Source: a virus
Taxonomy: Duplodnaviria > Caudoviricetes
Virus record (IMG/VR): IMGVR_UViG_3300021961_000137
Span: 1-53,280 of that record
Strand: one strand, 5' to 3'
DNA: 53,280 nt
The notes beneath the pieces were generated by a model, which was not told the DNA's origin, made no database searches, and worked only from the letters and a program-made list of their open reading frames with translations. Of the stretch, positions 7,928-28,228 are shown one piece after another; positions within the stretch are counted from its first letter, which is position 1; every line of letters begins with the position of its first letter. Made by a program: the position numbers and the translations under genes.

Positions 7928-9576
7928 TAGGATAAGTATTCCCACATATATGCACGATCTCCATATTCGTCAGTAAACCAACGATCACCCTCATTATCTA
8001 CAAAACTTGCATCATCTAAACCATCAGCAATAAATCCAAAGGGAGACATATCTTGTTCGATTTGATTTTTTTGTTCTTCATATAAACGTTTTCTAACGTC
8101 TTGATCCGTAAGTTCCTTAAAATAGTCTTGAGCAACTAACCAAGCATAAATTACAAGACACATTGCTAAGTCATCATTACAACCTTCTTCTGCCTCAAAA
8201 GAATTATGCTTTTGAATAAAAGTTGTTAACTCACTCATTATTTCATAATCTTTAAAGAGAAGTTTACTCTCTTCAATCATTGTTTTTAAGTTAAGACATC
8301 CTATCTTTTTAACAGTCTTAGACATCTTAACCCCAAGTTGAGTTTTCTTTCCAGAAAATCCTTGCCCAACTATTTGTCCCGCTCTTCCTCTCATAGAACA
8401 CATAAGAAGATTATTATATTCTAAATCATAATGAATGATTGATGCTACCTGATCACCAACATCATTGACTTCGCATAAAATATATGCATTATTATAATTT
8501 TTTGCTACATCTACAACAATGCTTGGAAACAGCATTGGTTTAATTTCATTGTTTCTATATTTTGCAACTACTTGGTGTGGAAATGTTGTGATATCAATTA
8601 CAGTGAATGCTGAATAATCGTTTCCTACGCCCCTAGCAACGTCTACAGTCATCAAGTAATCGTGATTGTCAATAGAGTCCTCATGAACGTCTAGACCACC
8701 GCTGCTGGTCTTTGGATGGTCATATACGAGAGATCTAAGTTTACTTGGTGCAATCAGAGTGTCTACAGATCCAAGAAATTCGCACTCAAACTCAACTTTG
8801 AACTGTTGCTCTGATGTGTTTGCAATCGTTTGCTTTTTCCATTCCTCATCTCTACCAGGAACTTCACTCCAATGAACATCAGTAAATACATATTCGTTCT
8901 TACCTTTCTCGGCATCATGCCACATTCGGTAGAAATGATTCATACCATGTGGAGTAGAAACTATAATAACCTTGGTCTGTTTACCAGAGGTAATCGTAGG
9001 ATAAACAGACGCAAAGAATGAATCTGCAATGTGATTTGGAACGAATGCAAATTCGTCCAAGAATAGAATATTGAATGACATTCCTCGGACAGCAGATGCG
9101 GAGGTGGATGCTGCTAAAATCTTAGAACCATTCTCAAGTTCTAGAGAACCTTTGTTCCAAGAGATAATACCTTGTTGCATCCACTTCGGAAGATTCTCAT
9201 AAGCAGTCTGAAGGCGGTCTAAGAGTTCTCTTGCCGTTGCTGCTTTGTTTGCAAGAATGCCAATATTTACATTATCGTTAAAAACTGCATAGTGTAGGAG
9301 AAAAGATACAACAGTGGTTGATTTGCCAGTTTGTCGTGGCATCTTGCAGATGTTAAATCTGTTATTATGAAAGTTATTGATTAACTTTTCTTGAAAATGA
9401 TATGGTTTAAATGTTTGAAGACCATGATCCAGAGTTACAATCTTTACATAATTATTTGCAAAGTAAACTGGATCATCTTTACACTTAACAAATTCGAGAA
9501 TTTGTTCTTGTGTAAATTCAATTGGAGTATTTGCTTTTTTGAGCAAAGGGTTGCCCAAATAAACATCATTTGACAT
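7927..9576 (-). CDS. gp17: Terminase large subunit
   Basis: Walker A PRQTGKST, Walker B LFLDEFAF, nuclease motifs DVARGVGNDYS and NDDLAM. Confidence 0.97.
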   Translation of the reverse strand: MSNDVYLGNPLLKKANTPIEFTQEQILEFVKCKDDPVYFANNYVKIVTLDHGLQTFKPYHFQEKLINNFHNNRFNICKMPRQTGKSTTVVSFLLHYAVFNDNVNIGILANKAATARELLDRLQTAYENLPKWMQQGIISWNKGSLELENGSKILAASTSASAVRGMSFNILFLDEFAFVPNHIADSFFASVYPTITSGKQTKVIIVSTPHGMNHFYRMWHDAEKGKNEYVFTDVHWSEVPGRDEEWKKQTIANTSEQQFKVEFECEFLGSVDTLIAPSKLRSLVYDHPKTSSGGLDVHEDSIDNHDYLMTVDVARGVGNDYSAFTVIDITTFPHQVVAKYRNNEIKPMLFPSIVVDVAKNYNNAYILCEVNDVGDQVASIIHYDLEYNNLLMCSMRGRAGQIVGQGFSGKKTQLGVKMSKTVKKIGCLNLKTMIEESKLLFKDYEIMSELTTFIQKHNSFEAEEGCNDDLAMCLVIYAWLVAQDYFKELTDQDVRKRLYEEQKNQIEQDMSPFGFIADGLDDASFVDNEGDRWFTDEYGDRAYMWEYLS

Positions 9577-11780: not shown

Positions 11781-12201
11781 TTTCAGTTTGTTGTTTTAGA
11801 AGTTTTGCTAATTCTGCAGTAGATCCAACAAAAAGTGCATTATTAACTGTTGTGGGTCCTTTTTGTTTTTCTTCTTCAATATCCTTAAGTTTCTTTTGAA
11901 GATCCATTAATTTATCGGTTGCATCAGCGACATTTTTAATTAATTGACCTGCAACTTCATAAGCACGAGGCATCTCGCTTTCCTGAGCAAGTTCAAGAAT
12001 TCCATTAATTGCTTCTTGACCTTTTTCAATGAGTGAATATAAATTACCTCTAGTATAATCATAATCTTTTTTTATATCATCAACAATTGTTGACATCTTT
12101 TCAATTTTATCAATAGCGGTTTCAGTATTATCTGTGGAAATAATTTCACCACTTACATTAAATGTTTCATTGAGTTTATCAAACTTTTTTGTCATTTTCA
12201 T
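11767..12201 (-). CDS. gp16: Terminase small subunit
   Basis: DYDYTRGNL, PRAYEVAGQLIK and NNALFVGSTAEL motifs; follows gp15. Confidence 0.92.
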   Translation of the reverse strand: MKMTKKFDKLNETFNVSGEIISTDNTETAIDKIEKMSTIVDDIKKDYDYTRGNLYSLIEKGQEAINGILELAQESEMPRAYEVAGQLIKNVADATDKLMDLQKKLKDIEEEKQKGPTTVNNALFVGSTAELAKLLKQQTENENV

Positions 12202-12206
12202 ATCTA

Positions 12207-13208
12207 TCAGAAAGTATTTCCACTAAATCCAAAATCATCACCCTCTTCAATTAATAAATCATCTGCAGCAGTAATTGACTTTACTTGAGATCCTGCTAAG
12301 TGTGGAGTTGTTGCTGTACCATCTTTACCTCTCTCAACGGTAAGAACGTTACCGGATTTTGATTGTACATAAACTTCTTCACCTTCAAAATCTAGATATG
12401 TGTTAATTGAAATAGAACTTGCATCATTTACAGTAATCAATGTATCATCTGCAGTTATGTCTTTTGATAAGTTAGTTAGAATAGTTCCTGTATAATTTTT
12501 AATTGCCCTTGGTTCGACTGAGTAAACAACTTCTCTAACTGGTGTTGAAGAAACATCTCCAGCAATATATCCAATAGAAGCTTTTTTGATAATATCTTTT
12601 GTTGCAGAGGAAACAGGTCCAAATATATAAGTTTTAGCACTAAATCTTAGAGTATATATTAGAACTCTTCTTGTATTGAAATCTCCTTCATAGTCATCTT
12701 GCATAGTAATATTCTCAAGAATTACAGGAATATCTCTCTTTTCATTGATAGTATCTACCAAATCAACTGTCATCGTATAAGCTGGTTGAAAAAATGGTAA
12801 AATTTGTTCTACAATTTGTAAAGCATCGTCATTTAACTTAGCCATTATACTAAGTTCAAATTGCATATTATAAGGAACTGGTAAATATACTTTTTTCGTT
12901 TCAGTACCGTCAGTAGCAGATTTTTTTATAAAAGTTTGCGTTGTTGTTGATTTTCTAGTTGAGTCATATGTCAAACCCGTAAATTCAAATGACATCCTTG
13001 GAAGTGTCATCTGAACGGGTTTATTTAAATTGGGTGATTGATTTATTCTTGCAAGAAACTTTTGAGTTGGACCATATGCAAGAGGTACTTTAATAACACT
13101 GACAGTTTCATTGTCATTATTGGTGTGTTTAATACTAATATTATTAAAAAGAGAACCAAATGAAATTACAGTTCTTCTTAAAATTTCGTGATAAAAATAT
13201 TCAAACAT
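12207..13208 (-). CDS. gp15: Tail sheath stabiliser / tail completion protein
   Basis: YFYHEILRR, VPLAYGP, LPRMSFE and QIVEQILPFFQP motifs. Confidence 0.93.
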   Translation of the reverse strand: MFEYFYHEILRRTVISFGSLFNNISIKHTNNDNETVSVIKVPLAYGPTQKFLARINQSPNLNKPVQMTLPRMSFEFTGLTYDSTRKSTTTQTFIKKSATDGTETKKVYLPVPYNMQFELSIMAKLNDDALQIVEQILPFFQPAYTMTVDLVDTINEKRDIPVILENITMQDDYEGDFNTRRVLIYTLRFSAKTYIFGPVSSATKDIIKKASIGYIAGDVSSTPVREVVYSVEPRAIKNYTGTILTNLSKDITADDTLITVNDASSISINTYLDFEGEEVYVQSKSGNVLTVERGKDGTATTPHLAGSQVKSITAADDLLIEEGDDFGFSGNTF

Positions 13209-15747: not shown

Positions 15748-15970
15748 TAACTAAACTCCGTAGTAAATTTTTAATTTCATCCAAATCATTTTTCATTCCA
15801 CTAACGTCACTTTCTAATTGTTTTACCCTATTGATTTCTTTTTCTTTTATTTTTTTTAGTCTTTGATAATTATTATATTCGTCCATATCTAAATTCAAAA
15901 TAGCTTTGGTTTTATTATCTCTAATTAAATTAGAGTGTCCTTCAACTTTAAGATAATCCATATCATGCAA
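15734..15970 (-). CDS. Small coiled-coil hypothetical protein
   Basis: KVEGHSNLIRD...AILN N-terminus and heptad-like C-terminus; coupled to both neighbours. Confidence 0.75.
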   Translation of the reverse strand: MHDMDYLKVEGHSNLIRDNKTKAILNLDMDEYNNYQRLKKIKEKEINRVKQLESDVSGMKNDLDEIKNLLRSLVNGPE

Positions 15971-18464
15971 GAGAAATAACTCTCAGATCTTTCAATCTTG
16001 GTGGGAATGCCTGATTAGTGCCGGCACCAATTAGTTTTATACTAAAATATCTAAACTCTGGTAAATTTGCTATTGTAAATTCATAATCCCTGAAATCTAA
16101 TTCAGAACTCTCAAATTTCATAATATCACTTTTTGGAGTTTTTTCATCTGGTGTTCCATCACCACCAGCAAAGAATTCGTCGGGATCCGTAGCTTGATTG
16201 GAATATCCGGGGAAAGGATAATAAATTGATTGATCATTTGGATCTTTTTTAATTGAATATAGGCATCTTAAATCACTATATTGGTTGACGTATGCTGCAA
16301 CCATTACTTTTAATGACGTTGCAGGTATTTCTAATTGAATAGTATTTGTTGCGTATACAAATGATGATGGGTCTTTATCAAGTGTTGCAACCCTTTCATC
16401 TTTATCATAATCTACAATAGGATTGTTAATTCTATTTGTAACAAAAATCATAGATGCTCTATCCAAATCTACCACAGGAGATAGGTATGGATCTGTAGTT
16501 TCTAAGAATAAATTCACTGTTAATGATTTTTTTCCGGGAAGATCTGCTAGTCTTTCGTCTTCATTAACCTTTGAGCACACTATTCTTGGAGAATCAAAAT
16601 AATTATTTCTATCCAACTCCATATTATCAAATCCTTGATCTTCAAATGAATATTCAAATCCATCAATACTGGTTCCTGCAATAGTTCTTACTCTTGCAGT
16701 GATATCAGTACCATTTAAAATCATAGTTTGAATATTTGGTTTTGCCATTTCAAATTGTATATTTTGAGTGGCGTTAACAAACATACCTCCGGTTGATTTA
16801 GTTTCATTTATACGTAGAAGTGGGAAAGATGTTCCTACACTTCTATCAACTTGTCCATATGGTAATAATAAAGTTTTTCCTGCTGAACTCATGTTAACTT
16901 TTATAGTATAATAATCAAAATCGCTTGCATCTTTTACCAATGCATCTTGCAAAGTATGAGTAGTATTAATTCTTCTGAGAGATATTCCATTTAATTCATA
17001 CTTATAAACTTGAGTTCCTTGAGAATATGAGAATGCGAGAGTTTGATCAATACCTCTTGTTACACCAGTTAAAGTATTTTCAGTAACTCCTTGATACGCA
17101 AGAATTTCGTTACCAATCAAAACATATCCCGGATTTGTGCTACTAACTCCAACATTCTCAAAAGTTGAGAAGTTTGTAGTCCCTGTTACTAATAAATCTC
17201 CAGTAGAATTTTGATCATAGTCTGATGTTAATTTTATTGGTTTAATATCAGGCAATACATTTGATATTTTTACCACGTTTTCTTCATCATGCATTCCATG
17301 ATTTCTATGATTTACTCTGATATGCAAACCATCAGTTCTTGTTTCTATTGCGCCATCACTTATCAAAACTCCTCCACCAATATTTGAATTGATGTCAGTT
17401 CTTACACCTGCACTAGTAATGTATTGCATAGTTTTTCCAGCGCCAGACACAAATTGTCCCTGAACATTGTCCAAAACTAATTCATTTACTCCAGATAAAT
17501 TAGACACAGATAAGAGTAAATTAGTTCCTGTATTTTCAACTCCAAGTTCAGAAACTGTTAATACTTCTCCTATGGTAAAACCAGTTCCTCCATTAGATAT
17601 TGTCGCAGCAACTGCGACTCCATTTTCAATGGTAATATTTGCTGTTGCATTCTTTCCAGAACCATTAATACTCGTTACGGCAACTCCAGTATATGTTAAT
17701 CCTCCCGCAGATGGAGTATATCCAATTCCGGAATTAATAATTGTCAAATTTCCTGAAGCAGATCCTGCGGAGAAAACGTAATTGCCACTAGCGTTACTAC
17801 CTTGCTGTACAATTGTATTGCCAAGTTTTAAATTTGAATCTTGTATCGTTGTTCCTAAACCAACTCTAATTATATTTGACTCAAAATCAAGAGGATTTGG
17901 AACTAATGTTGCTACTTGTTTATTACCCAAACTTAGTTCTGGGTTGTAAAAATTAAAATCACCTGCCTGTGAAGTAAAATCTGCTCTATACAAAGTAAAC
18001 TTCAAATCTTCATATGGACTTTCATTCCATGTAGAAGCATTTTGTGATTTAAATAATCCACCACTCAATGGTTGTTTTGTAACTAATATTTGTTTTGATT
18101 CTGGTCCAGAAAGAGTTGTTACATCAACCTCTCCTAGTCTTGAGACCCAAACATTATAAGTTGGGATATTCGACATCAATACTAAAGCATGAAATTTTCT
18201 TCCAACCAGGTATACTGGAGATGGGAATGTTATTCTTGTTGGAATTGACGCATCTTCAGAAATGTTAATATCTTTAGGATCTACAACAATCTCACTAAAT
18301 GGATACACTCTTGGTGTAGGAAGTCCCATTTCCATTGGTCTAAGTTGAACCGTTATCGGTAAGACCGCATCCTTTGATAAGAAATATAAATCTACAGACG
18401 TAATAAAAGCACCAGTTTCATTTTCAATATAAAATGATTGTGCTAATGGATCTATAACCTTCAT
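15963..18464 (-). CDS. Virion structural protein, C-terminal third of a split DUF4815/VrlC-like protein
   Basis: Starts at DPLAQSF, which is normally internal; contains LFKSQNASTW...EDLKFTLYRA; ends PPRLKDLRVISLA. Confidence 0.8.
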   Translation of the reverse strand: MKVIDPLAQSFYIENETGAFITSVDLYFLSKDAVLPITVQLRPMEMGLPTPRVYPFSEIVVDPKDINISEDASIPTRITFPSPVYLVGRKFHALVLMSNIPTYNVWVSRLGEVDVTTLSGPESKQILVTKQPLSGGLFKSQNASTWNESPYEDLKFTLYRADFTSQAGDFNFYNPELSLGNKQVATLVPNPLDFESNIIRVGLGTTIQDSNLKLGNTIVQQGSNASGNYVFSAGSASGNLTIINSGIGYTPSAGGLTYTGVAVTSINGSGKNATANITIENGVAVAATISNGGTGFTIGEVLTVSELGVENTGTNLLLSVSNLSGVNELVLDNVQGQFVSGAGKTMQYITSAGVRTDINSNIGGGVLISDGAIETRTDGLHIRVNHRNHGMHDEENVVKISNVLPDIKPIKLTSDYDQNSTGDLLVTGTTNFSTFENVGVSSTNPGYVLIGNEILAYQGVTENTLTGVTRGIDQTLAFSYSQGTQVYKYELNGISLRRINTTHTLQDALVKDASDFDYYTIKVNMSSAGKTLLLPYGQVDRSVGTSFPLLRINETKSTGGMFVNATQNIQFEMAKPNIQTMILNGTDITARVRTIAGTSIDGFEYSFEDQGFDNMELDRNNYFDSPRIVCSKVNEDERLADLPGKKSLTVNLFLETTDPYLSPVVDLDRASMIFVTNRINNPIVDYDKDERVATLDKDPSSFVYATNTIQLEIPATSLKVMVAAYVNQYSDLRCLYSIKKDPNDQSIYYPFPGYSNQATDPDEFFAGGDGTPDEKTPKSDIMKFESSELDFRDYEFTIANLPEFRYFSIKLIGAGTNQAFPPRLKDLRVISLA

Positions 18465-18484
18465 TTGATTGGTCTCTTTTTATT

Positions 18485-18739
18485 TTATTTATTTTGTTTG
18501 AGTGTATCTATTTCTTGCTTAAGTTCTTTCACAGCCTCTATTAAAATTGGTATCAATTGAATATAATCAACTGTCAAATATCCATCATTTCCCATTTTTA
18601 CTATCTCAGGAAATTCTTTTTGAACCTCCTGAGCAATTACTCCATATTCGTATCCACTTTGACCAGTTAATTCTGTCATTTTTTCATTCCATTCATAGTA
18701 TTTTCCATTTATATTAGATAATCTAGACAAATAACTCAT
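18485..18739 (-). CDS. Stand-alone C-terminal portion of a peptidase S74 / intramolecular chaperone domain
   Basis: NGKYYEW...YGVIAQEVQKEFPEIV...GYLTVDYIQLIPILIEAVKELKQEI is the S74 core plus coiled coil; the SDxRLK cleavage motif is absent. Confidence 0.85.
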   Translation of the reverse strand: MSYLSRLSNINGKYYEWNEKMTELTGQSGYEYGVIAQEVQKEFPEIVKMGNDGYLTVDYIQLIPILIEAVKELKQEIDTLKQNK

Positions 18740-18740
18740 A

Positions 18741-20417
<1,677 letters not shown>

Positions 20418-20422
20418 AAACT

Positions 20423-23400
20423 TTAATTATTAAAATTAATATTAATTAATCTATCTAATGCACTATTTATAAGTACAATATTCTGTTTTAGTTGAACATC
20501 ACTTCTCTTACCAATACTTCCTCCCATTGATGCAGGAGTTGGTTTTGGTGTTGTACTCATTGTTCCTTGGTTTCCAGAACTCTTACTTGTTGGTTTTGGT
20601 AGAATGTTTGGCGTATTCTTGGTCGCTGGTTTACCGTTAACAACGTGCCCAACAGGGACAGTTATACCATTTTTGGATATTTTTTGATCAATTTGATACG
20701 AACCGTGTGCAATAAAGTCTGCCGGTAACTGACTTGGTTTGTACCAACCTGCTGCAGGTTTCCAACTATTTGGTATTTTGGATCCGTTTCCACCACCATA
20801 AACCATAGGGACACCTTTATTTCCATCTCCTGCACCACTATGAACTCTAATCAAATAATCTGGAGATGTTGGTTTTTTAGGTACAACTTTATCTTTACCT
20901 TTCTTAGGACCAGTTCCTTTTCCTTTTTCAGGTCTTGGTTTTGATGGTGGCGGAGTTGTTTTAGTTGGTGGAACTTTATCAACTTTTATGGGATTATTTG
21001 ACGGTTGTTGAGACCCCATTGGAGTTTTTACTGGTTTTTCAGGTCTTGGTTTTGTTGTTTGGGTAGTGGGAGGAACCCAAGAATTTTCATGCTGATTCCA
21101 AGTTACTGGTGCAAATCCTGTTTGTGGATCAGACTTAGTTACCTTTGTTTGTTCATCAGTTTCTACATAAGCTTGTTCGATGTCAATTGTATTTGCTCTT
21201 AATCTAACCTGATCTACCCAAATATCAGATGATGGGAATAGTTGGATGGTTCCAGTATAAAAATCTTCCGAATATGGATTTACGTTGACAGCTCTTGTTG
21301 AATATGGTTGGTTAACATAACTAACTTCCTGATAGTTTAGAGTAACTAACTGACCTGTTCTTCTAACATTAGAACCAATTAATGAGGTATCTGTTCTAGC
21401 ATCAGATCTAGTATTTACAGAAGCTCCAATTCCTATTAAAGAATTTGTTCCAAGTAGCAAATCAAGAGATGTTGTATAGTGAGTTGGTCTTAATTCAGAA
21501 TTTTGAATATCGATACAATTTTTTACAGTTGTAGATTTATCTTGAGAAATTGTTGTTGAAAAATTATCTACAAAAATACCAGATTTAAATCTACTTATTC
21601 CATTTTCATCAACAATTGACATGCTTTCCGCATCAGCTTCAAGCATTGAAAGAGATGTGTAATACTCTAATTTTTCTATCCTATCTTCAAGTTCACCAAT
21701 GTCTGCCATTGTATATCTTCTATGCTCTTTGAGTTCTACCTCAGCATCATTAACATTATACAGGTAAGGTGGTAAGTAAACAGTTGCAACTTCTAGAGCA
21801 TCTTCATTTATAATTGGTGGTTGTGGACTTTCTGCAGCAATTCCAAGTTTTAACTGGAATGTTCCATTTTTGTTTAATAAAATTTTATCAATTCTGGGAA
21901 GGTAGAATGAATACGTAAGAACAAGAGATTCATCTGAGGCTAAAATATTTGGAGATGAATTTCCTTGCCTATCAAAAGTTCTTGCCAAAAATTCAAAAGG
22001 AGATCTGATATTCTCTGCAGGAGAAATTGGAGAAACTCTTGGTCTTATATCAATAATATCAGTTAATCTTGTTAAACCATCGACAGTATCAATATCTGCA
22101 TAATCAAATTGATTATATGAACTTGCTGTAGTTAAATCTCCAGTATCTGATGTAGAAAATTCCGCAGATTCGAATACAATTTTTAATTTTTTAGTTGGTT
22201 CTTTTGTTTTAACATCTCTTACTATTTTTGAATAATCGTAAATTGTTGAATTTTGATTTGGATCTAACCTAAATTGCGAACTAATATTTCTATCTCCTAC
22301 ATCTAATATAGAGATTGATGCCGTAATTTTAGAATCTACAAACCGTATCTTTTCTCCTTCTTCAAAAGTACTTGAATTGACATAAGCAAATCCAATCTTT
22401 AAGTCATTCAGTTTTTCTACATAAATTCCAATTGCTTTACTTTTCTCGCCAATAAATTCTTCTCCAATTAGAAGATCTCCAACTTTATTTGTTGGACCAT
22501 TTAAGTCTGTTAAAATGATACTTGGCAAATCTGGATTGTTTGTGTCATTAGATTCTATAATTGCATGAACCTTTGTTACATCTGGTTGAAGTAAACAGAT
22601 TTCTTCATCTTGAACTCTAGTTCCATATGGATAATTTCCATAAATAAGTCCATCATTTAGAGTTGTTCCTCCAATTCCAGAAGAAGCAAATTTTGACTTA
22701 TCGATTATAATTACTTTTGCTTTATTTCTATTTTTAATTTTCGATTTTATATTGAGTTTTCTTAAAGTTGCGATTAACTTGGCATTGCCACTTCCGGATA
22801 ATCCTTTTATTGATATTGATCTAGAACCATTAGTAAATGTAAATTTTTCATCTGATAAGACCTCAGTACCCCCATCTTGCCTTATTAATGCATATCTTTC
22901 TTCATCGTATGGTAAAAATGTTTCGTCTGCATTTGCCACAATTTCTGAAATTTGATTTCCAGAAATTACAACATCAAATTGTTTTCTTATAGACAGATTT
23001 GATTCGGATAAATTTACTTCTTTTACATTTGATTTTGGTAAAGGAGTATATAATGTATTGTCCCTAGATGGACGTAAGAGTGTTTTTAAAATAGTAAAAT
23101 TAGTTGGAGATAATGTAGTTGCTGGAAGAGCACCGTCACAAATACCCGGAACTGTAGTTATGCCACTTATTGTTAGGGTTTTTTCGGATACTGTTTCAAT
23201 TTTTGCAAAGGTGTTAATTGTTAATCCTGGTCTTGAAAAAGAAACTAAATTTCCTACTGTTGCTATTCCTACAAAAAATTCCTCAGTAGAAGTAACAGAG
23301 CATATACCAGATGTAGATACACCACTAATAGTAATTTGCGATAATAGAGTTGCCGGTTTCTGAATAGTATCTCCGGAAAAAATGTACGAAGATCCAACAG

Positions 23401-25084
23401 ATCCATACAGAGATTTTACATCATCTGTTGAATAAATACGAAGTTTTTTTACAGTTCTTGTATTTTCTATGCCGTCAAAAATTAATTTTTCACCTAAAGA
23501 AAATCTTCCTTTTACATTGTAAATAGTCAGTTCTTTACTGTCAGTTACTGCATACCTAAGAAATCCAGTTGCTCCACTAGCTTTTCCTCTTACATGAGTT
23601 GGGATAGTTAGTGTAACATTTTCATTTAAAGTAATTATTGTATATGTTTGTATATCATATAATGAAATATCCCATTGATTTTCATTTTGGTTGGATAATG
23701 CATATGAACCAGATTCTAAAGCAAAATCATAAACTCTTGCCAATCCAATTTCATTGCCGGGTGCTACCGTTGAAGATGCACCAACTCTCGAATCTCTCAA
23801 ACTAACATAATAACTTGTATTAATTCCAATAATTGGAGATCCATAAACTCTGTTAAGAGTGAATGACGGTCCAGTGTAATAATTTACACTTTGATCTTCT
23901 AGAGTTTTTGTTGCTCTTGGTTTTTGAAAATCAAAAAATGTTGGACCTATTGTTTCAATTTCAAATCCTCTAACATATGCTTTAAGTGGAGAAATATTAT
24001 ATGTTCCTAATTCTTCAATTGGTTGATTGTTATCGTATGTTAGTTGATTTTCAGTAAAAATTCCATCATTACCTTTTAAATCATTTAAAGTTTCTTGCGG
24101 GATTACTATCGGAGCATTTACGTAGTAGTCCCCAGATTCATCATATGTTCTTCTAGCAAGTTCTTGTGCAAGAATATTATATTGTGGTTTATTTGTAATA
24201 TTACTAAGTTTTCCTTCTTTAACTTCTAGTAAAGATATAAAATTATCTAAATCAGTTGAATCTAAAGGAAGTTTTTCTAGTTTTGTAAATACACTAAATC
24301 TATCTGCTCCAGGAGCGGCATAGTTTGAAAATCCCTGTGCATTGTCATTTAGAGTTTCATCATCGTAGGAATCAATAATATCTTCAAATATTCTCAAACC
24401 AACTTTATAACTTGGTTTGTTTGAATATGGTTCTAGATATAAGATACTAGTTGGTACTTGTACAAAAAATCCTCTAATAAAATAAATACCTTCTTCAAGA
24501 TAAACTGCAGAACCTATGGATGTGCAATTTTGAGATGCTGTTGTTGCAAAACCCTGTCCTTTTTTAATTTCGATTTCTCTGGGATCATCATCATCGATTG
24601 TTTTCGGATCAGTTACCAGTAAATCTTCATCAAATAATAAATTTTCGCTATTTAAAAATCTAGTTTCTGAATTGTCTCTAGTATCTGGACTTAGATATTT
24701 AACAAATAATGTAGTGTTTTCTACCCCATTACCTGCTACTAAAAACTCTTCAAGAATTGCAGTTACGCCACTTACTTGTCCCTTTATTTTTAGTCCACGC
24801 AAATTTGACAAATAATATGAAGATGGGAGACCTTGATAATTATTCTCTAAAATTACCGAATTTAAATCATTTTTATAAATTAAATTTCCCGGGATAACTA
24901 CAGAACCCTCTTTGAAAGTATGACTTCCAAATTGCTCAATCTGATTTTGCAGAATTGATTGTAAAGTTGTAAGTTCTCTTGCTTGAACTGGATATCCGGG
25001 TTTGAATAATACTTTGAAATAATTTTTATCTATATCAAAGTCATCAAAATACGGAGATACGTTAAGATTAGTTTCCTGTGGCAT
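20423..25084 (-). CDS. Virion structural protein, N-terminal part of the split DUF4815/VrlC-like protein, with Pro/Lys-rich tail and S74 N-fragment
   Basis: MPQETNLNVSPYFDDF, VLFKPGYPVQARELT, APGADR, LARRTYDESGDY and RFKSGIFVDNF motifs; ends SDVQLKQNIVLINSALDRL. Confidence 0.85.
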   Translation of the reverse strand: MPQETNLNVSPYFDDFDIDKNYFKVLFKPGYPVQARELTTLQSILQNQIEQFGSHTFKEGSVVIPGNLIYKNDLNSVILENNYQGLPSSYYLSNLRGLKIKGQVSGVTAILEEFLVAGNGVENTTLFVKYLSPDTRDNSETRFLNSENLLFDEDLLVTDPKTIDDDDPREIEIKKGQGFATTASQNCTSIGSAVYLEEGIYFIRGFFVQVPTSILYLEPYSNKPSYKVGLRIFEDIIDSYDDETLNDNAQGFSNYAAPGADRFSVFTKLEKLPLDSTDLDNFISLLEVKEGKLSNITNKPQYNILAQELARRTYDESGDYYVNAPIVIPQETLNDLKGNDGIFTENQLTYDNNQPIEELGTYNISPLKAYVRGFEIETIGPTFFDFQKPRATKTLEDQSVNYYTGPSFTLNRVYGSPIIGINTSYYVSLRDSRVGASSTVAPGNEIGLARVYDFALESGSYALSNQNENQWDISLYDIQTYTIITLNENVTLTIPTHVRGKASGATGFLRYAVTDSKELTIYNVKGRFSLGEKLIFDGIENTRTVKKLRIYSTDDVKSLYGSVGSSYIFSGDTIQKPATLLSQITISGVSTSGICSVTSTEEFFVGIATVGNLVSFSRPGLTINTFAKIETVSEKTLTISGITTVPGICDGALPATTLSPTNFTILKTLLRPSRDNTLYTPLPKSNVKEVNLSESNLSIRKQFDVVISGNQISEIVANADETFLPYDEERYALIRQDGGTEVLSDEKFTFTNGSRSISIKGLSGSGNAKLIATLRKLNIKSKIKNRNKAKVIIIDKSKFASSGIGGTTLNDGLIYGNYPYGTRVQDEEICLLQPDVTKVHAIIESNDTNNPDLPSIILTDLNGPTNKVGDLLIGEEFIGEKSKAIGIYVEKLNDLKIGFAYVNSSTFEEGEKIRFVDSKITASISILDVGDRNISSQFRLDPNQNSTIYDYSKIVRDVKTKEPTKKLKIVFESAEFSTSDTGDLTTASSYNQFDYADIDTVDGLTRLTDIIDIRPRVSPISPAENIRSPFEFLARTFDRQGNSSPNILASDESLVLTYSFYLPRIDKILLNKNGTFQLKLGIAAESPQPPIINEDALEVATVYLPPYLYNVNDAEVELKEHRRYTMADIGELEDRIEKLEYYTSLSMLEADAESMSIVDENGISRFKSGIFVDNFSTTISQDKSTTVKNCIDIQNSELRPTHYTTSLDLLLGTNSLIGIGASVNTRSDARTDTSLIGSNVRRTGQLVTLNYQEVSYVNQPYSTRAVNVNPYSEDFYTGTIQLFPSSDIWVDQVRLRANTIDIEQAYVETDEQTKVTKSDPQTGFAPVTWNQHENSWVPPTTQTTKPRPEKPVKTPMGSQQPSNNPIKVDKVPPTKTTPPPSKPRPEKGKGTGPKKGKDKVVPKKPTSPDYLIRVHSGAGDGNKGVPMVYGGGNGSKIPNSWKPAAGWYKPSQLPADFIAHGSYQIDQKISKNGITVPVGHVVNGKPATKNTPNILPKPTSKSSGNQGTMSTTPKPTPASMGGSIGKRSDVQLKQNIVLINSALDRLININFNN
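20464..20471 (-). promoter_or_regulatory. T4-type late promoter TATAAATA inside the S74 N-fragment codons, upstream of 20417
   Basis: Exact consensus; AATAAATA variants at 18770-18777 and 18486-18493 precede the next two ORFs. Confidence 0.7.
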
Positions 25085-25090
25085 AATTTT

Positions 25091-26644
25091 TTAAAACTGC
25101 AAAATAACTTTAATATCTTCCCTTTGATTAATAGACCTGGTTATCGGTGGTCTATTATCAACATATATTATGTTTCCTGAATATTTTTTTACCTCTGGAT
25201 TAGATACGCCATTTGTAAAAGTTTGACCAAGATAGTATGTCCTATTATTTATTGAGGTAGAAATCCCATTAAATGTTGTTTCAATACCAAGAGTGGCGCT
25301 TCCTCCAGTTATAATTAGAGAACCACCTGTTTTTGGTGATGAAGTAAATCTATTTAAATTAAATCCATAAATTGGTGATGTATTTTGAGATCCATCTGTA
25401 TTAAATCCAACTAAAGATTTGTCTTGCCAATATTTTAAAACTCCTGTTGTTGCATCATAAGAAACAACTCTACCAACTGCGGTAGATCCAATCCCAATTG
25501 TTTGTGTAATGGTAGAATCTGCTACAAAAGATGTTGTACTGTAACCAATACCTGTCAGTTTAAGTGCATAGACTGCACTTGCTTTTTCCAACTCTAGTAC
25601 TGCTTCCGATTCAAAAGATTGTGGATTTTCTACAATACCAATTCTTGCAATTTGATTTCCTGTGATAAAATCTGCATTTTGAACGTCATTTTCAATTCTA
25701 GAATACATTAGCACATTATATGCACCAAGTTCTCTATAAATATCAGACCCGTGGCCACCTTGCGGTGGGATTATGACATCAAAAATTGGTCTTGTTGTTC
25801 CTGTAGGAACTCCACCTGATAATAAATCAACACTACCATAAGTATAATTAGATCCTCCATTTGATATAGTTATACTTTCAACTTTAGAATCTCCGTCAAT
25901 TACAATAGTGGCTTTAGCACCATATCCATCTCCATGAATGGGAACATTTGAGTATGTTCTATTCGCAGTTCCTAAACCAACGCCTCTGTTTTTGATCGTT
26001 ATGATTTTAAGTTGACCACTAGTTTTAGCATTATCTCTAACCGCAGAGTTTTCAGAACCTGTTTCCCAGTCTTTAGGAACTGGCATAAAATTAGTAGAGT
26101 CGAATTTGACAATATCATTAGGTTTGATTGTATAAAGATATTTCCATATATACCCATCTCCACTATCTCCAGCAATTCTTGGTTCTAAATCAGTGAATGA
26201 TGGTTGATCTAGTGATGGTTTTCCCACTGGATTTTCGGGATCAGTACCATTATATAAACAAATATAAACTCTATAATCTTCATTTATTATATAAAAATTT
26301 GCATTATATAAATGTGTTGCTTCTGAAGGTTTTGATGGGTTTGATCTACTAATATCATGTCGATACATATCATAAGTAGTTCCTGAGGTCCAAAGATTTT
26401 TCTTTACGACCTGTCGAATATCACCTGCATTGAATTTTTTCAATGCAATCATAGTGTCCCAATAATCATTTTCTTGATCAAAACTATCTTTTGGTGCCGG
26501 TGGTGATACATTCCAATTTGCATCATAATCAGATGAGTTAGGTAGTCCGACAAAAGCGTAATATGAATTTATATCTGAAGTTGCTGCAGATACAAAATTC
26601 TTTGCATTTAAAATTCTAAGTTGGTCCGTTATGATTGCAGCCAT
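25091..26644 (-). CDS. gp8: Baseplate wedge subunit
   Basis: MAAIITDQLRILNA start, DGYIWKYLY motif, C-terminal SGNIIYVDNR...EDIKVILQF. Confidence 0.88.
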   Translation of the reverse strand: MAAIITDQLRILNAKNFVSAATSDINSYYAFVGLPNSSDYDANWNVSPPAPKDSFDQENDYWDTMIALKKFNAGDIRQVVKKNLWTSGTTYDMYRHDISRSNPSKPSEATHLYNANFYIINEDYRVYICLYNGTDPENPVGKPSLDQPSFTDLEPRIAGDSGDGYIWKYLYTIKPNDIVKFDSTNFMPVPKDWETGSENSAVRDNAKTSGQLKIITIKNRGVGLGTANRTYSNVPIHGDGYGAKATIVIDGDSKVESITISNGGSNYTYGSVDLLSGGVPTGTTRPIFDVIIPPQGGHGSDIYRELGAYNVLMYSRIENDVQNADFITGNQIARIGIVENPQSFESEAVLELEKASAVYALKLTGIGYSTTSFVADSTITQTIGIGSTAVGRVVSYDATTGVLKYWQDKSLVGFNTDGSQNTSPIYGFNLNRFTSSPKTGGSLIITGGSATLGIETTFNGISTSINNRTYYLGQTFTNGVSNPEVKKYSGNIIYVDNRPPITRSINQREDIKVILQF

Positions 26645-26665: not shown

Positions 26666-28228
26666 TCAGAGGAATGCGTTAGGAAAGATTACAATTGTGC
26701 TTCCCATAGCAGTATTAACATTTGACTGATAGAATAGTGTATTTGGTGCATTAAACGGAACATTAAAAGTAATAATTGAATTTGTAGATCCATTCCCAAT
26801 TACACCATTATCATATTGAGTGCTGGAAAATCCAGTTCTAATATAAAATCCTTCTCCAGTTCCGCAATTGTTTATAAATTGATAGGATTGACCTCTTAAC
26901 AAATAAAGTATAGGATCGGGAGATGCTTCAGTAAGTCCAATACCAGATAAAATAAAATTATGAGGCGATCCAGTTCCAGTGACAACCCACCTTCCACTTA
27001 TTGCATTTGAAATATCTCCATAATAAGTTACAATACCACTAGAGGAGGTTACTACTCCACTATTTACTACAATGTTAGAAACTCCAGATACTGTAAACCC
27101 ATTTTGTATGGTTACATTTCCAGATAATGTAGAAACACCAGAAACTGAAAGTTGTTTTGCAAATAAAGTTTCTCCAGTTACGGTTGTTATACCTGCAAAA
27201 GTAGAAACTCCTACAACTAAAGTGTCTCCAATAACATGAAGTTTAGACGTTGGTAACGTAGTTCCTAATCCCACACTAGAATTGGAAGTGACTACAAATA
27301 CTTTACTATCATCTTTAACGCCAAAGGCAAATGATGCTCCACTTTGAACGCTAGTATTTAAAGTAGTTCTTCCGAGACCAATTGTTCCGGAAACATAACC
27401 AAAAGTAAATCCTACTCCTGTTTGAATATCAACATTTAAAGTTGTTGTTCCAATACCAACAGTATCAACTCCAATAGAAATAACTGTAGTGCCAACAGAA
27501 ACGATAGTTGACAATCCAATTACCTCATAACCAACAACAATACCTGAAGTGTTAATACCCGTTATGATGTTTGTGGAAACACCAACTGTACCTGCAGTTG
27601 AAACAACGGAAACAAATGCTGTTCCAATAGAAACAACAGTAGTGCCAGTAGCTACAATAGTAGATAAACCAGTTACCTCATGTCCAATGACAATGCCAGT
27701 AGTATTAATACCCGTTATGATGTTTGTGGAAACACCGACTGTACCGCCAGATGAAACGGTGGTTATAAAATCTCTAGGTCCTACTTGCAATCTTTGAATT
27801 GGATTTTCTGTAGAAATACCAACAGAACCTAAAGTTTGAATAATATTATTGTTATAAGTTGATACTCCAGAAACATTAAGTTGCTTTGAAAATAAAGTTT
27901 CTCCAGTTACGGTTGTTATACCTGCAAAAGTGGAAACACCAGATACTGATAAGTTATTTAATGTGGAAATTCCTGAAGCAAGAAAATTTGCAGTAGATGT
28001 TAATTCAGAAACATTAATATTAGTTGAATTAATAGTGGATAATGTTAATGTTGTTCCTATACCAACATTGGACATATCAGCCCTAGCTAATTCAAAACCT
28101 CCTGCGGTAGATCCATCATGAACCCTAATAGTTTTTGATTCACTATTGATAGATATTTCACCATCAGCGCCAGTAAATCCTGCGTTCTGGTCTTTTGTTC
28201 CTCTTCTAAATTGTACTTGTGTAGGCAT
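26666..28228 (-). CDS. Tail fibre-like protein with Mtd-type N-terminal domain and internal duplications
   Basis: MPTQVQFRRGT...FTGADGEI...VHDGSTAGG; GVSTF/VGIGT repeats; C-terminal VPFNAPNTLFYQ. Confidence 0.75.
   Translation of the reverse strand: MPTQVQFRRGTKDQNAGFTGADGEISINSESKTIRVHDGSTAGGFELARADMSNVGIGTTLTLSTINSTNINVSELTSTANFLASGISTLNNLSVSGVSTFAGITTVTGETLFSKQLNVSGVSTYNNNIIQTLGSVGISTENPIQRLQVGPRDFITTVSSGGTVGVSTNIITGINTTGIVIGHEVTGLSTIVATGTTVVSIGTAFVSVVSTAGTVGVSTNIITGINTSGIVVGYEVIGLSTIVSVGTTVISIGVDTVGIGTTTLNVDIQTGVGFTFGYVSGTIGLGRTTLNTSVQSGASFAFGVKDDSKVFVVTSNSSVGLGTTLPTSKLHVIGDTLVVGVSTFAGITTVTGETLFAKQLSVSGVSTLSGNVTIQNGFTVSGVSNIVVNSGVVTSSSGIVTYYGDISNAISGRWVVTGTGSPHNFILSGIGLTEASPDPILYLLRGQSYQFINNCGTGEGFYIRTGFSSTQYDNGVIGNGSTNSIITFNVPFNAPNTLFYQSNVNTAMGSTIVIFPNAFL
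27161..27932. repeat. Nested internal duplications in the fibre gene: 42-nt identity at 27161/27891 and 32-nt identity at 27552/27705
   Basis: AAATAAAGTTTCTCCAGTTACGGTTGTTATACCTGCAAAAGT twice; TTAATACCCGTTATGATGTTTGTGGAAACACC twice. Confidence 0.85.

Follow-up and report, generated by a model that had tools for sequence, protein, structure and literature searches.

The 53,280-nucleotide stretch analysed here (the window; positions 1 to 53,280 of IMG/VR virus record IMGVR_UViG_3300021961_000137) represents part of the genome of an uncultured T4-like phage and probably encodes a naturally split intramolecular-chaperone/autocleavage domain (Peptidase S74, ICA), in which short C-terminal tags on two neighbouring proteins, A and B, are complemented in trans by a free 84-residue protein, the body. 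This reading is based on the anatomy of the domain, its conservation and selection in relatives and the joint loss of tag and body, together with a complex that is confidently predicted in silico. In phage fibres, and in the human myelin regulator MyRF, the S74/ICA domain is the textbook example of an intramolecular chaperone used only once, and a natural split version departs from that scheme. The three open reading frames (ORFs) proposed in a first-pass annotation, made from the sequence alone, were borne out by ORF listing (Table 1). It added that such a system was not known to it as described, and no description of a split S74/ICA domain was found in open-access papers and bioRxiv.

Anatomy of the tags and the free body

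Protein A terminates ...SIGKR-SDVQLKQNIVLINSALDRLININFNN and protein B terminates ...GGSKM-SDIRLKKNITTINSALQILSQL. The two tags share the pattern S-D-x-x-L-K-x-N-I, and in both the Ser-Lys dyad lies in the S-D-x-x-L-K motif; the dyad is carried by the client, not by the body. The B tag ends exactly where the first-pass annotation placed it (...ILSQL, 22 aa), but protein A does not stop at ...ALDRL as stated there: it continues for 7 more residues (ININFNN), giving a tag of 26 aa. A six-frame motif scan of the 53-kb window returned exactly two tags and one body.

Alignment to the Peptidase_S74 profile (PF13884), a check that the annotation had proposed, divided the domain between the genes. Body residues 4-48 match profile positions 17-58 only (35.1 bits, cut-off 22), and B residues 537-558 match positions 1-23 with 15.6 bits, under that cut-off. 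Because the B tag covers positions 1-23 and the body 17-58, positions 17-23, part of the first helix, are encoded twice, in agreement with the earlier observation that tag and body each carry the helix after Asn-Ile. The duplication spans about 7-9 helix residues. A six-frame read across the B/body junction scored 22.6 bits for S74, with stops inside.

The body consists of a short helix, four strands and a C-terminal coiled-coil helix, and lacks both the Ser-Lys dyad and a long 'tentacle' hairpin. Modelled alone, it reached a pLDDT of 91.6. The best Foldseek match of this model was the ICA domain of MyRF (7dc3; TM score 0.86, root-mean-square deviation 2.9 Å, 29% identity, E 3e-5), followed by 3gw6 and 3gud with probabilities of 0.94-0.98. 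The MyRF domain is likewise a compact 'donut' without tentacles, although it is eukaryotic and sits within one chain, in the middle of a membrane-bound transcription factor.

The one-piece S74/ICA domains of K1F endosialidase (3GW6), GA-1 gp12 (3GUD) and T5 pb1 share with the window the S-D-x-x-L-K motif and its dyad, the GVIAQE core, the C-terminal trimeric coiled-coil helix, the position at the end of virion proteins and the PF13884 match. They differ in several respects. Here the domain is not contiguous in a single chain, as 'intramolecular' implies; it lies in two ORFs, with the duplicated helix residues, both in the window and in 48/48 related loci with a free body, and one body stands beside two tagged proteins. 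The window domain totals about 100 residues and has no long hairpin tentacles, whereas the T5 pb1 chaperone domain has 133 residues and 50-Å hairpins (PMC4690869). Classical phage chaperone domains fold and sense a triple beta-helix (PMC4690869), whereas both window tags follow low-complexity tails (~180 and ~277 residues) that the single-chain relative lacks. Small proteins encoded beside their clients and acting in trans in virion-protein assembly do occur elsewhere. The separately encoded tail-fibre chaperones, T4 gp38/gp57A and the Tfa proteins, are of this kind, but their folds are unrelated and none of them is half of a self-cleaving domain with the catalytic residues on the client.

Conservation and joint loss of tag and body in relatives

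A body-based scan of viral contigs returned 119 relatives, of which 80 loci were kept. These comprised 48 loci with a free body, 30 with a one-piece S74 domain ending a long protein, one with a different split (L082) and one uninformative fragment. The free bodies occupy a short stop-to-stop frame (81-110 aa) at 60-75% identity, and a tag-ending ORF lies just upstream in all 48 loci, so that the related-phage search proposed earlier found the split arrangement conserved wherever a free body occurs next to its tag-bearing gene, with L082 as a different kind of split. The usual layout in these relatives is a single client, with A and B fused, rather than two.

The junctions bear on whether tag and body might be joined by programmed frameshifting or stop read-through into a one-piece domain. 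In the window the ORFs abut, with one base between the B stop and the body start (TAA-T-ATG) and the body in the +1 frame, and in L006 tag and body are in frame with one stop codon between them; both arrangements would suit such recoding. Across 34 unique pairs (window included), however, the offset from tag stop to body start is +2 in 22, +1 in 11 and 0 in 1, and the spacing ranges from -17 to +8, with many overlaps of the ATGA or TGATG type. Since all three frame offsets and varied spacings occur, no single recoding event could join the pairs and no sequencing error would so recur. No shared slippery site was seen at the tag/body junctions, every body has its own ATG (GTG in L022) at the same position of the domain, and a fused product would hold helix alpha-1 twice. 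Recoding is therefore very improbable, and the first-pass contention that this is a true split of S74, not a single domain broken by a frameshift, is upheld by the 48 loci, the frame offsets and the duplicated helix. Because the body start codon lies one base past the B stop, translational coupling of the two genes is suggested.

All 35 tags agree in seven columns (Ser, Asp, Leu, Lys, Asn, Ile and a later Leu), and in each of them the stretch directly preceding the Ser is Gly-rich or basic. The Ser codon is AGY in 27 of 34 tags and TCN in the other 7. Over 20 tag codons (560 pairs) the proportion of nonsynonymous differences (pN) was 0.238 against 0.706 for synonymous differences (pS), corresponding to a nonsynonymous to synonymous rate ratio (dN/dS) of ~0.2; over 59 body codons (528 pairs) the values were 0.158 and 0.631 (dN/dS 0.13). 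For the 8 codons before the Ser, dN/dS is meaningless, because this low-complexity sequence is not alignable. These comparisons support a split that is conserved and under purifying selection, and they speak against the random decay in relatives that the annotation had named as a possible refutation.

In this light it is scarcely credible that the arrangement arose by faulty assembly or sequencing, or that it is a pseudogene decaying at random. The window comes from a metagenome and amounts to only about a quarter of a genome (CheckV completeness 25), and low-complexity tails do break up short-read assemblies, but the 34 unique tag/body pairs come from many samples, the protein database holds at least 138 clusters of free bodies of 75-96 aa, and the purifying selection is accompanied by independent contigs across the tag of protein A. 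These clusters are unnamed or 'hypothetical', except one called YfbU, and they include closer relatives of the window body, at 83-87% identity. None of the 25 PHROG families listed for the body is a free body: 24 have it at the C terminus of a profile for a long protein, and the remaining family, of 51 positions, matches only the last 42 residues of the body. A GenBank search with the 84-aa protein returned 618 records, all below 60% identity; those examined (HTVC008M, Roth68, AG-345-D19, AG-345-L05 and the P-TIM68 neighbours, by Pfam) held one-piece domains or unrelated small proteins.

Tag and body are also lost together. A second scan, with the B region shared with single-chain relatives (module B, Table 1), gave 47 loci, in which relatives at ≤53% identity encode A-B-C as one chain. 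Closer relatives show one of two layouts: A-B carrying a tag, then the body, then C, or neither tag nor body. Both elements are absent in L089, L094-96 and L097/98. Locus L090 reads as a loss in progress: the protein stops after ...GGGGKR, the former Ser codon has become Arg, the tag has a 4-base deletion and the body is deleted just past its start codon. Among the loci examined, there was no intact adjacent tag without a body and no body without a tag in this setting. The pair is also found next to other genes (L010, L029/30 and L036), and judging from these loci tag and body move as a unit.

Several relatives show further arrangements. L082 encodes a free 96-aa S74 body (7950-8240) with no adjacent tag; 3.7 kb downstream of it, a 155-aa Cys/Asn-repeat protein (11935-12402) has at its end a tag of 12 residues (SDERLKTNIIAL) that lacks a helix copy. 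This locus may represent an independent origin of the tag-plus-free-body design. In L036 (75-6661), one-piece and split forms stand side by side: directly after an 1871-aa protein with a one-piece S74 domain comes a 235-aa protein whose end holds just a tag, and a free body follows. In L029 (6520-8004), the tag-bearing protein has the sequence ...CGFLSHN a little upstream of its Pro/Gly tail, resembling the end of a Hint/intein-like domain; the tail of its tag is divergent and contains an insertion. In some relatives a 154-aa ORF (L087, 4786-5250) lies between the body and gene C; a remnant is found in L090 (4540-4690), and the ORF is absent from the window.

Predicted assembly, cleavage and the number of clients

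To examine the fit of the two parts, three bodies and three B tags were modelled together, each supplied as an alignment, a 3+3 design unlike the one on which the tool was calibrated. The complex scored an ipSAE of 0.84 (runs 0.83, 0.85 and 0.84) against 0.01 for the best of three controls, with a partner pLDDT of 65-67 and at least 86% of contacts common to the runs; 58 of 80 solved complexes attain the tool's mark, as do 2 of 110 mismatched pairs. In the predicted interface, tag residues 6-23 (the Ser, Asp and Lys among them) contact residues 11-18, 32-37 (the GVIAQE core) and 54-60 of the body. In the model, tag and body thus reassemble. The multimer check proposed in the annotation, made here with the B tag, thus gave a high score, which may reflect the model's memory of one-piece structures, a point taken up below.

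On this basis a working scheme can be drawn. The tag on the long, flexible A or B tail would supply the 22-26 N-terminal residues of the domain, a 'cable' with the scissile bond, the Ser-Lys dyad and one copy of alpha-1. The remainder would come from the 84-aa protein, which holds alpha-1 a second time, followed by the beta 'donut' and a coiled coil that trimerises. Three bodies would first form a trimer, into which three tags would thread as the neighbouring-subunit cable does in solved one-piece domains, bringing three client chains together. The dyad would then cut just before the Ser, leaving mature A ending ...GKR and mature B ending ...SKM, and the body-tag complex would be released. Binding in the cell, cleavage, client trimerisation and the use of one body by both tags are inferred. 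A natural split makes testable both the trans action of the domain and the contribution of the body to a dyad on the client, and could serve as a compact natural template for a removable trimerisation tag or a self-cleaving tag.

The MyRF structure report describes a cleavage-site cable from a neighbouring subunit that threads the beta 'donut', and a cleavage that requires the trimer and no upstream stalk residue (PMC8326128). Because of this cable threading and stalk-independent cleavage, a cut after the cable and helix is structurally plausible. By analogy, the MyRF findings fit the absence here of an upstream beta-helix and of long tentacles. Alternatively, tag and body could assemble without any cut, as a permanent non-covalent trimerising connector in the baseplate. 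The model supports assembly only, and the upstream beta-helix Arg that aids catalysis in endoNF and T5 pb1 (PMC4690869) has no counterpart before tags that follow low-complexity tails. On the other side, the dyad Ser and Lys are invariant in every tag, the Ser is retained across AGY and TCN codons, MyRF cuts with no stalk residue, and relatives that lack the module end at the predicted cut. The last point rests on protein ends that coincide with it (L090 stops at ...GGGGKR, protein A of L006 at ...MGKRS), which give indirect support for tag removal during maturation. A connector that is never cut is, on balance, improbable.

Several observations weigh against the scheme drawn above. The module is evidently dispensable, as four groups of relatives live without tag and body. 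Both tags follow low-complexity tails instead of a triple beta-helix, and the 'chaperone' part of the domain's name may not apply. In the modelled complex, the duplicated tag helix (residues 24-32), although conserved, is not confidently placed, and the high score may reflect memory of solved one-piece S74 structures, in which case it indicates likeness and not binding. The B-tag/body junction of this strain (18739-18743) lies outside the contigs of four sequencing runs, and its support comes from relatives instead. The remaining points concern the first tag, that of protein A. It is known only from the window phage and near-identical strains; L089 and L094-96 have the A|B split without any tag; and in the sister lineages L006 and L008, where A and B are likewise separate and both the second tag and the body are present, the first tag is reduced to a decayed remnant downstream of A. 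Because L006 and L008 keep only such remnants, the first tag must be regarded as dispensable.

The first tag itself is well supported as a sequence. It and the A-stop/B-start junction (TAA-AGTTT-ATG, five bases between) are covered by gap-free contigs from three independent DNA studies (X13, X6 and X4; Table 1), with no differences listed within 20423-20510. Contigs from an RNA library (X16) overlap B and the first tag in part, with a depth of 2-4; given possible DNA in the library, they were not counted as expression. All seven family-invariant residues are kept, with no stop or frameshift, and over 22 codons the first tag differs from other tags with a pS of 0.42-0.85 and a pN of 0.16-0.30. 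Because these differences are mostly synonymous, selection on the first tag is suggested.

Two intact tags were nevertheless found only in the window phage among loci L004-L147, and none of 12 metagenome loci scanned for three-gene splits with a first tag carried one. It is possible, if doubtful, that only the B tag works with the body. The A tag would then be left over from the duplication by which A and B became separate, and would be neutral or retained for reasons at the DNA level, for instance start signals of gene B. The restriction of the A tag to this phage and its decay in L006 and L008 fit this explanation, as does a perfect match to the T4-type late-promoter consensus inside the first tag (20464-20471, ~45 bases upstream of the B start). 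That match was rejected as evidence, since the motif is not enriched (5 found in the window against 7.4 expected). The retained invariant residues and the excess of synonymous differences speak for a used tag, and the remnants in L006 and L008 illustrate the rapid decay of a copy free of selection at comparable divergence.

The chances that the first tag is a working client of the body are accordingly judged to be roughly even, and one body common to two clients is plausible, resting on one phage. The first-pass proposal of two clients sharing one body thus keeps its two intact tags, the first confirmed by contigs of three studies, but applies to this phage only. A fuller version, in which the 84-aa protein is a reusable, trans-acting, trimerising protease-chaperone that docks the flexible tagged tails of A and B, formerly a single chain, draws them together while the baseplate is assembled, cuts both tags and is released for reuse, is offered tentatively and is less likely than not.

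Baseplate origin of the clients and genomic setting

The clients had been taken for two virion proteins; on alignment, A, B and the downstream 833-aa protein C are pieces of one ancestral giant baseplate protein of the VrlC/DUF4815 type. This follows from their colinear alignment to SynMITS9220M01_085 and from coverage of the phrog_358 profile in the same order (A positions 1-1155, B 1184-1398, C 1421-2055). Protein A matches Pfam DUF4815 with an E value of 4.5e-59, and C aligns over its full length to SynMITS9220M01_085 residues 1724-2542 at 46% identity. VrlC is described as a double-layered baseplate component that replaces T4 gp7 in cyano- and pelagimyophages (PMC7029224; PMC4621102).

The gene after gp8 is a single ORF in Prochlorococcus phage P-TIM68 (gp089, 2624 aa) and Synechococcus phage SynMITS9220M01 (2542 aa). 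These single-chain proteins (phrog_358) resemble the window in their colinear A, B and C regions (43-46% identity) and in the gp8 neighbour, which is also present in related contigs. They differ in being one chain of ~2,550-2,600 aa with no S74 element, whereas the window has three genes in place of the single VrlC polypeptide, with added tails, two tags and a body. Distant relatives (L104-L132) are likewise single chains, and closer ones have two or three genes.

The breaks between A, B and C are located at the two inter-module linkers, and at each break a tail and then a tag have been added. The A tail has no counterpart past residue 1350 of the single-chain relative, and its end has homologues in the L006 and L008 A tails; the B tail has no counterpart in that relative either. 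The split thus presents a giant baseplate gene broken into separate genes whose products may still be assembled with one another. The B tail contains long Gly runs and PAPAPMGS-type repeats. Its length varies in frame: a near-identical strain (X13 contigs) lacks 9 and 3 bases in it, and the reading frame to the tag is kept.

Table 1. Features of the split-domain region, in window coordinates, and independent contigs across the first tag.
Feature	Position	Strand	Description or basis
gp8-like baseplate wedge gene	25091..26644	-	Pfam Phage-Gp8, E 6.6e-16; directly upstream of A
Protein A ORF, 1553 aa	20423..25084	-	ORF listing
Module A, residues 1-1347 of the 1553-aa ORF	21044..25084	-	44% identity to SynMITS9220M01_085 residues 1-1350
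A tail, residues 1348-1527	20504..21043	-	Mostly Pro/Lys/Thr-rich; ends ...SIGKR before the predicted cut; alignment
First tag, 26 aa, Ser1528-Asn1553 of A	20426..20503	-	Ser and Lys of the dyad, copy of helix alpha-1
Protein B ORF, 558 aa	18741..20417	-	ORF listing
Module B, residues 18-259 of the 558-aa ORF	19641..20366	-	43% identity to SynMITS9220M01_085 residues 1426-1692
B tail, residues 260-536	18810..19640	-	Gly-/Pro-rich low complexity; ends ...GGGGGSKM before the predicted cut; alignment
Second tag, 22 aa, Ser537-Leu558 of B	18744..18809	-	Pfam S74 profile positions 1-23
Free body ORF, 84 aa	18485..18739	-	ORF listing
Module C, 833 aa, C-terminal third of the VrlC/DUF4815 protein	15963..18464	-	46% identity, phrog_358
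X13 contig, 1014 nt	19633-20646		Independent DNA study
X6 contig, 3116 nt	19531-20700		Independent DNA study
X4 contig, 498 nt	20040-20537		Independent DNA study

Downstream of gp8, the genes for A, B, the body and C form four consecutive minus-strand ORFs (Table 1). The guanine-cytosine content of the window is ~30-40%, and the nearest GenBank records to the region are Kyanoviridae cyanophages, at 67-69% DNA identity across about one third of it. Upstream of gp8, a 520-aa protein (26666-28228, minus strand) begins with an Mtd_N domain (major tropism determinant N-terminal; E 2.3e-9). The sequence after this domain repeats internally and is rich in Gly, Val, Ser and Thr, and the protein probably acts as a fibre or in receptor binding. 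DNA near-identical to 18400-20700 occurs in runs from several studies labelled as marine, estuary, freshwater and drinking-water metagenomes, and the habitat range that these labels suggest serves as a lead only.

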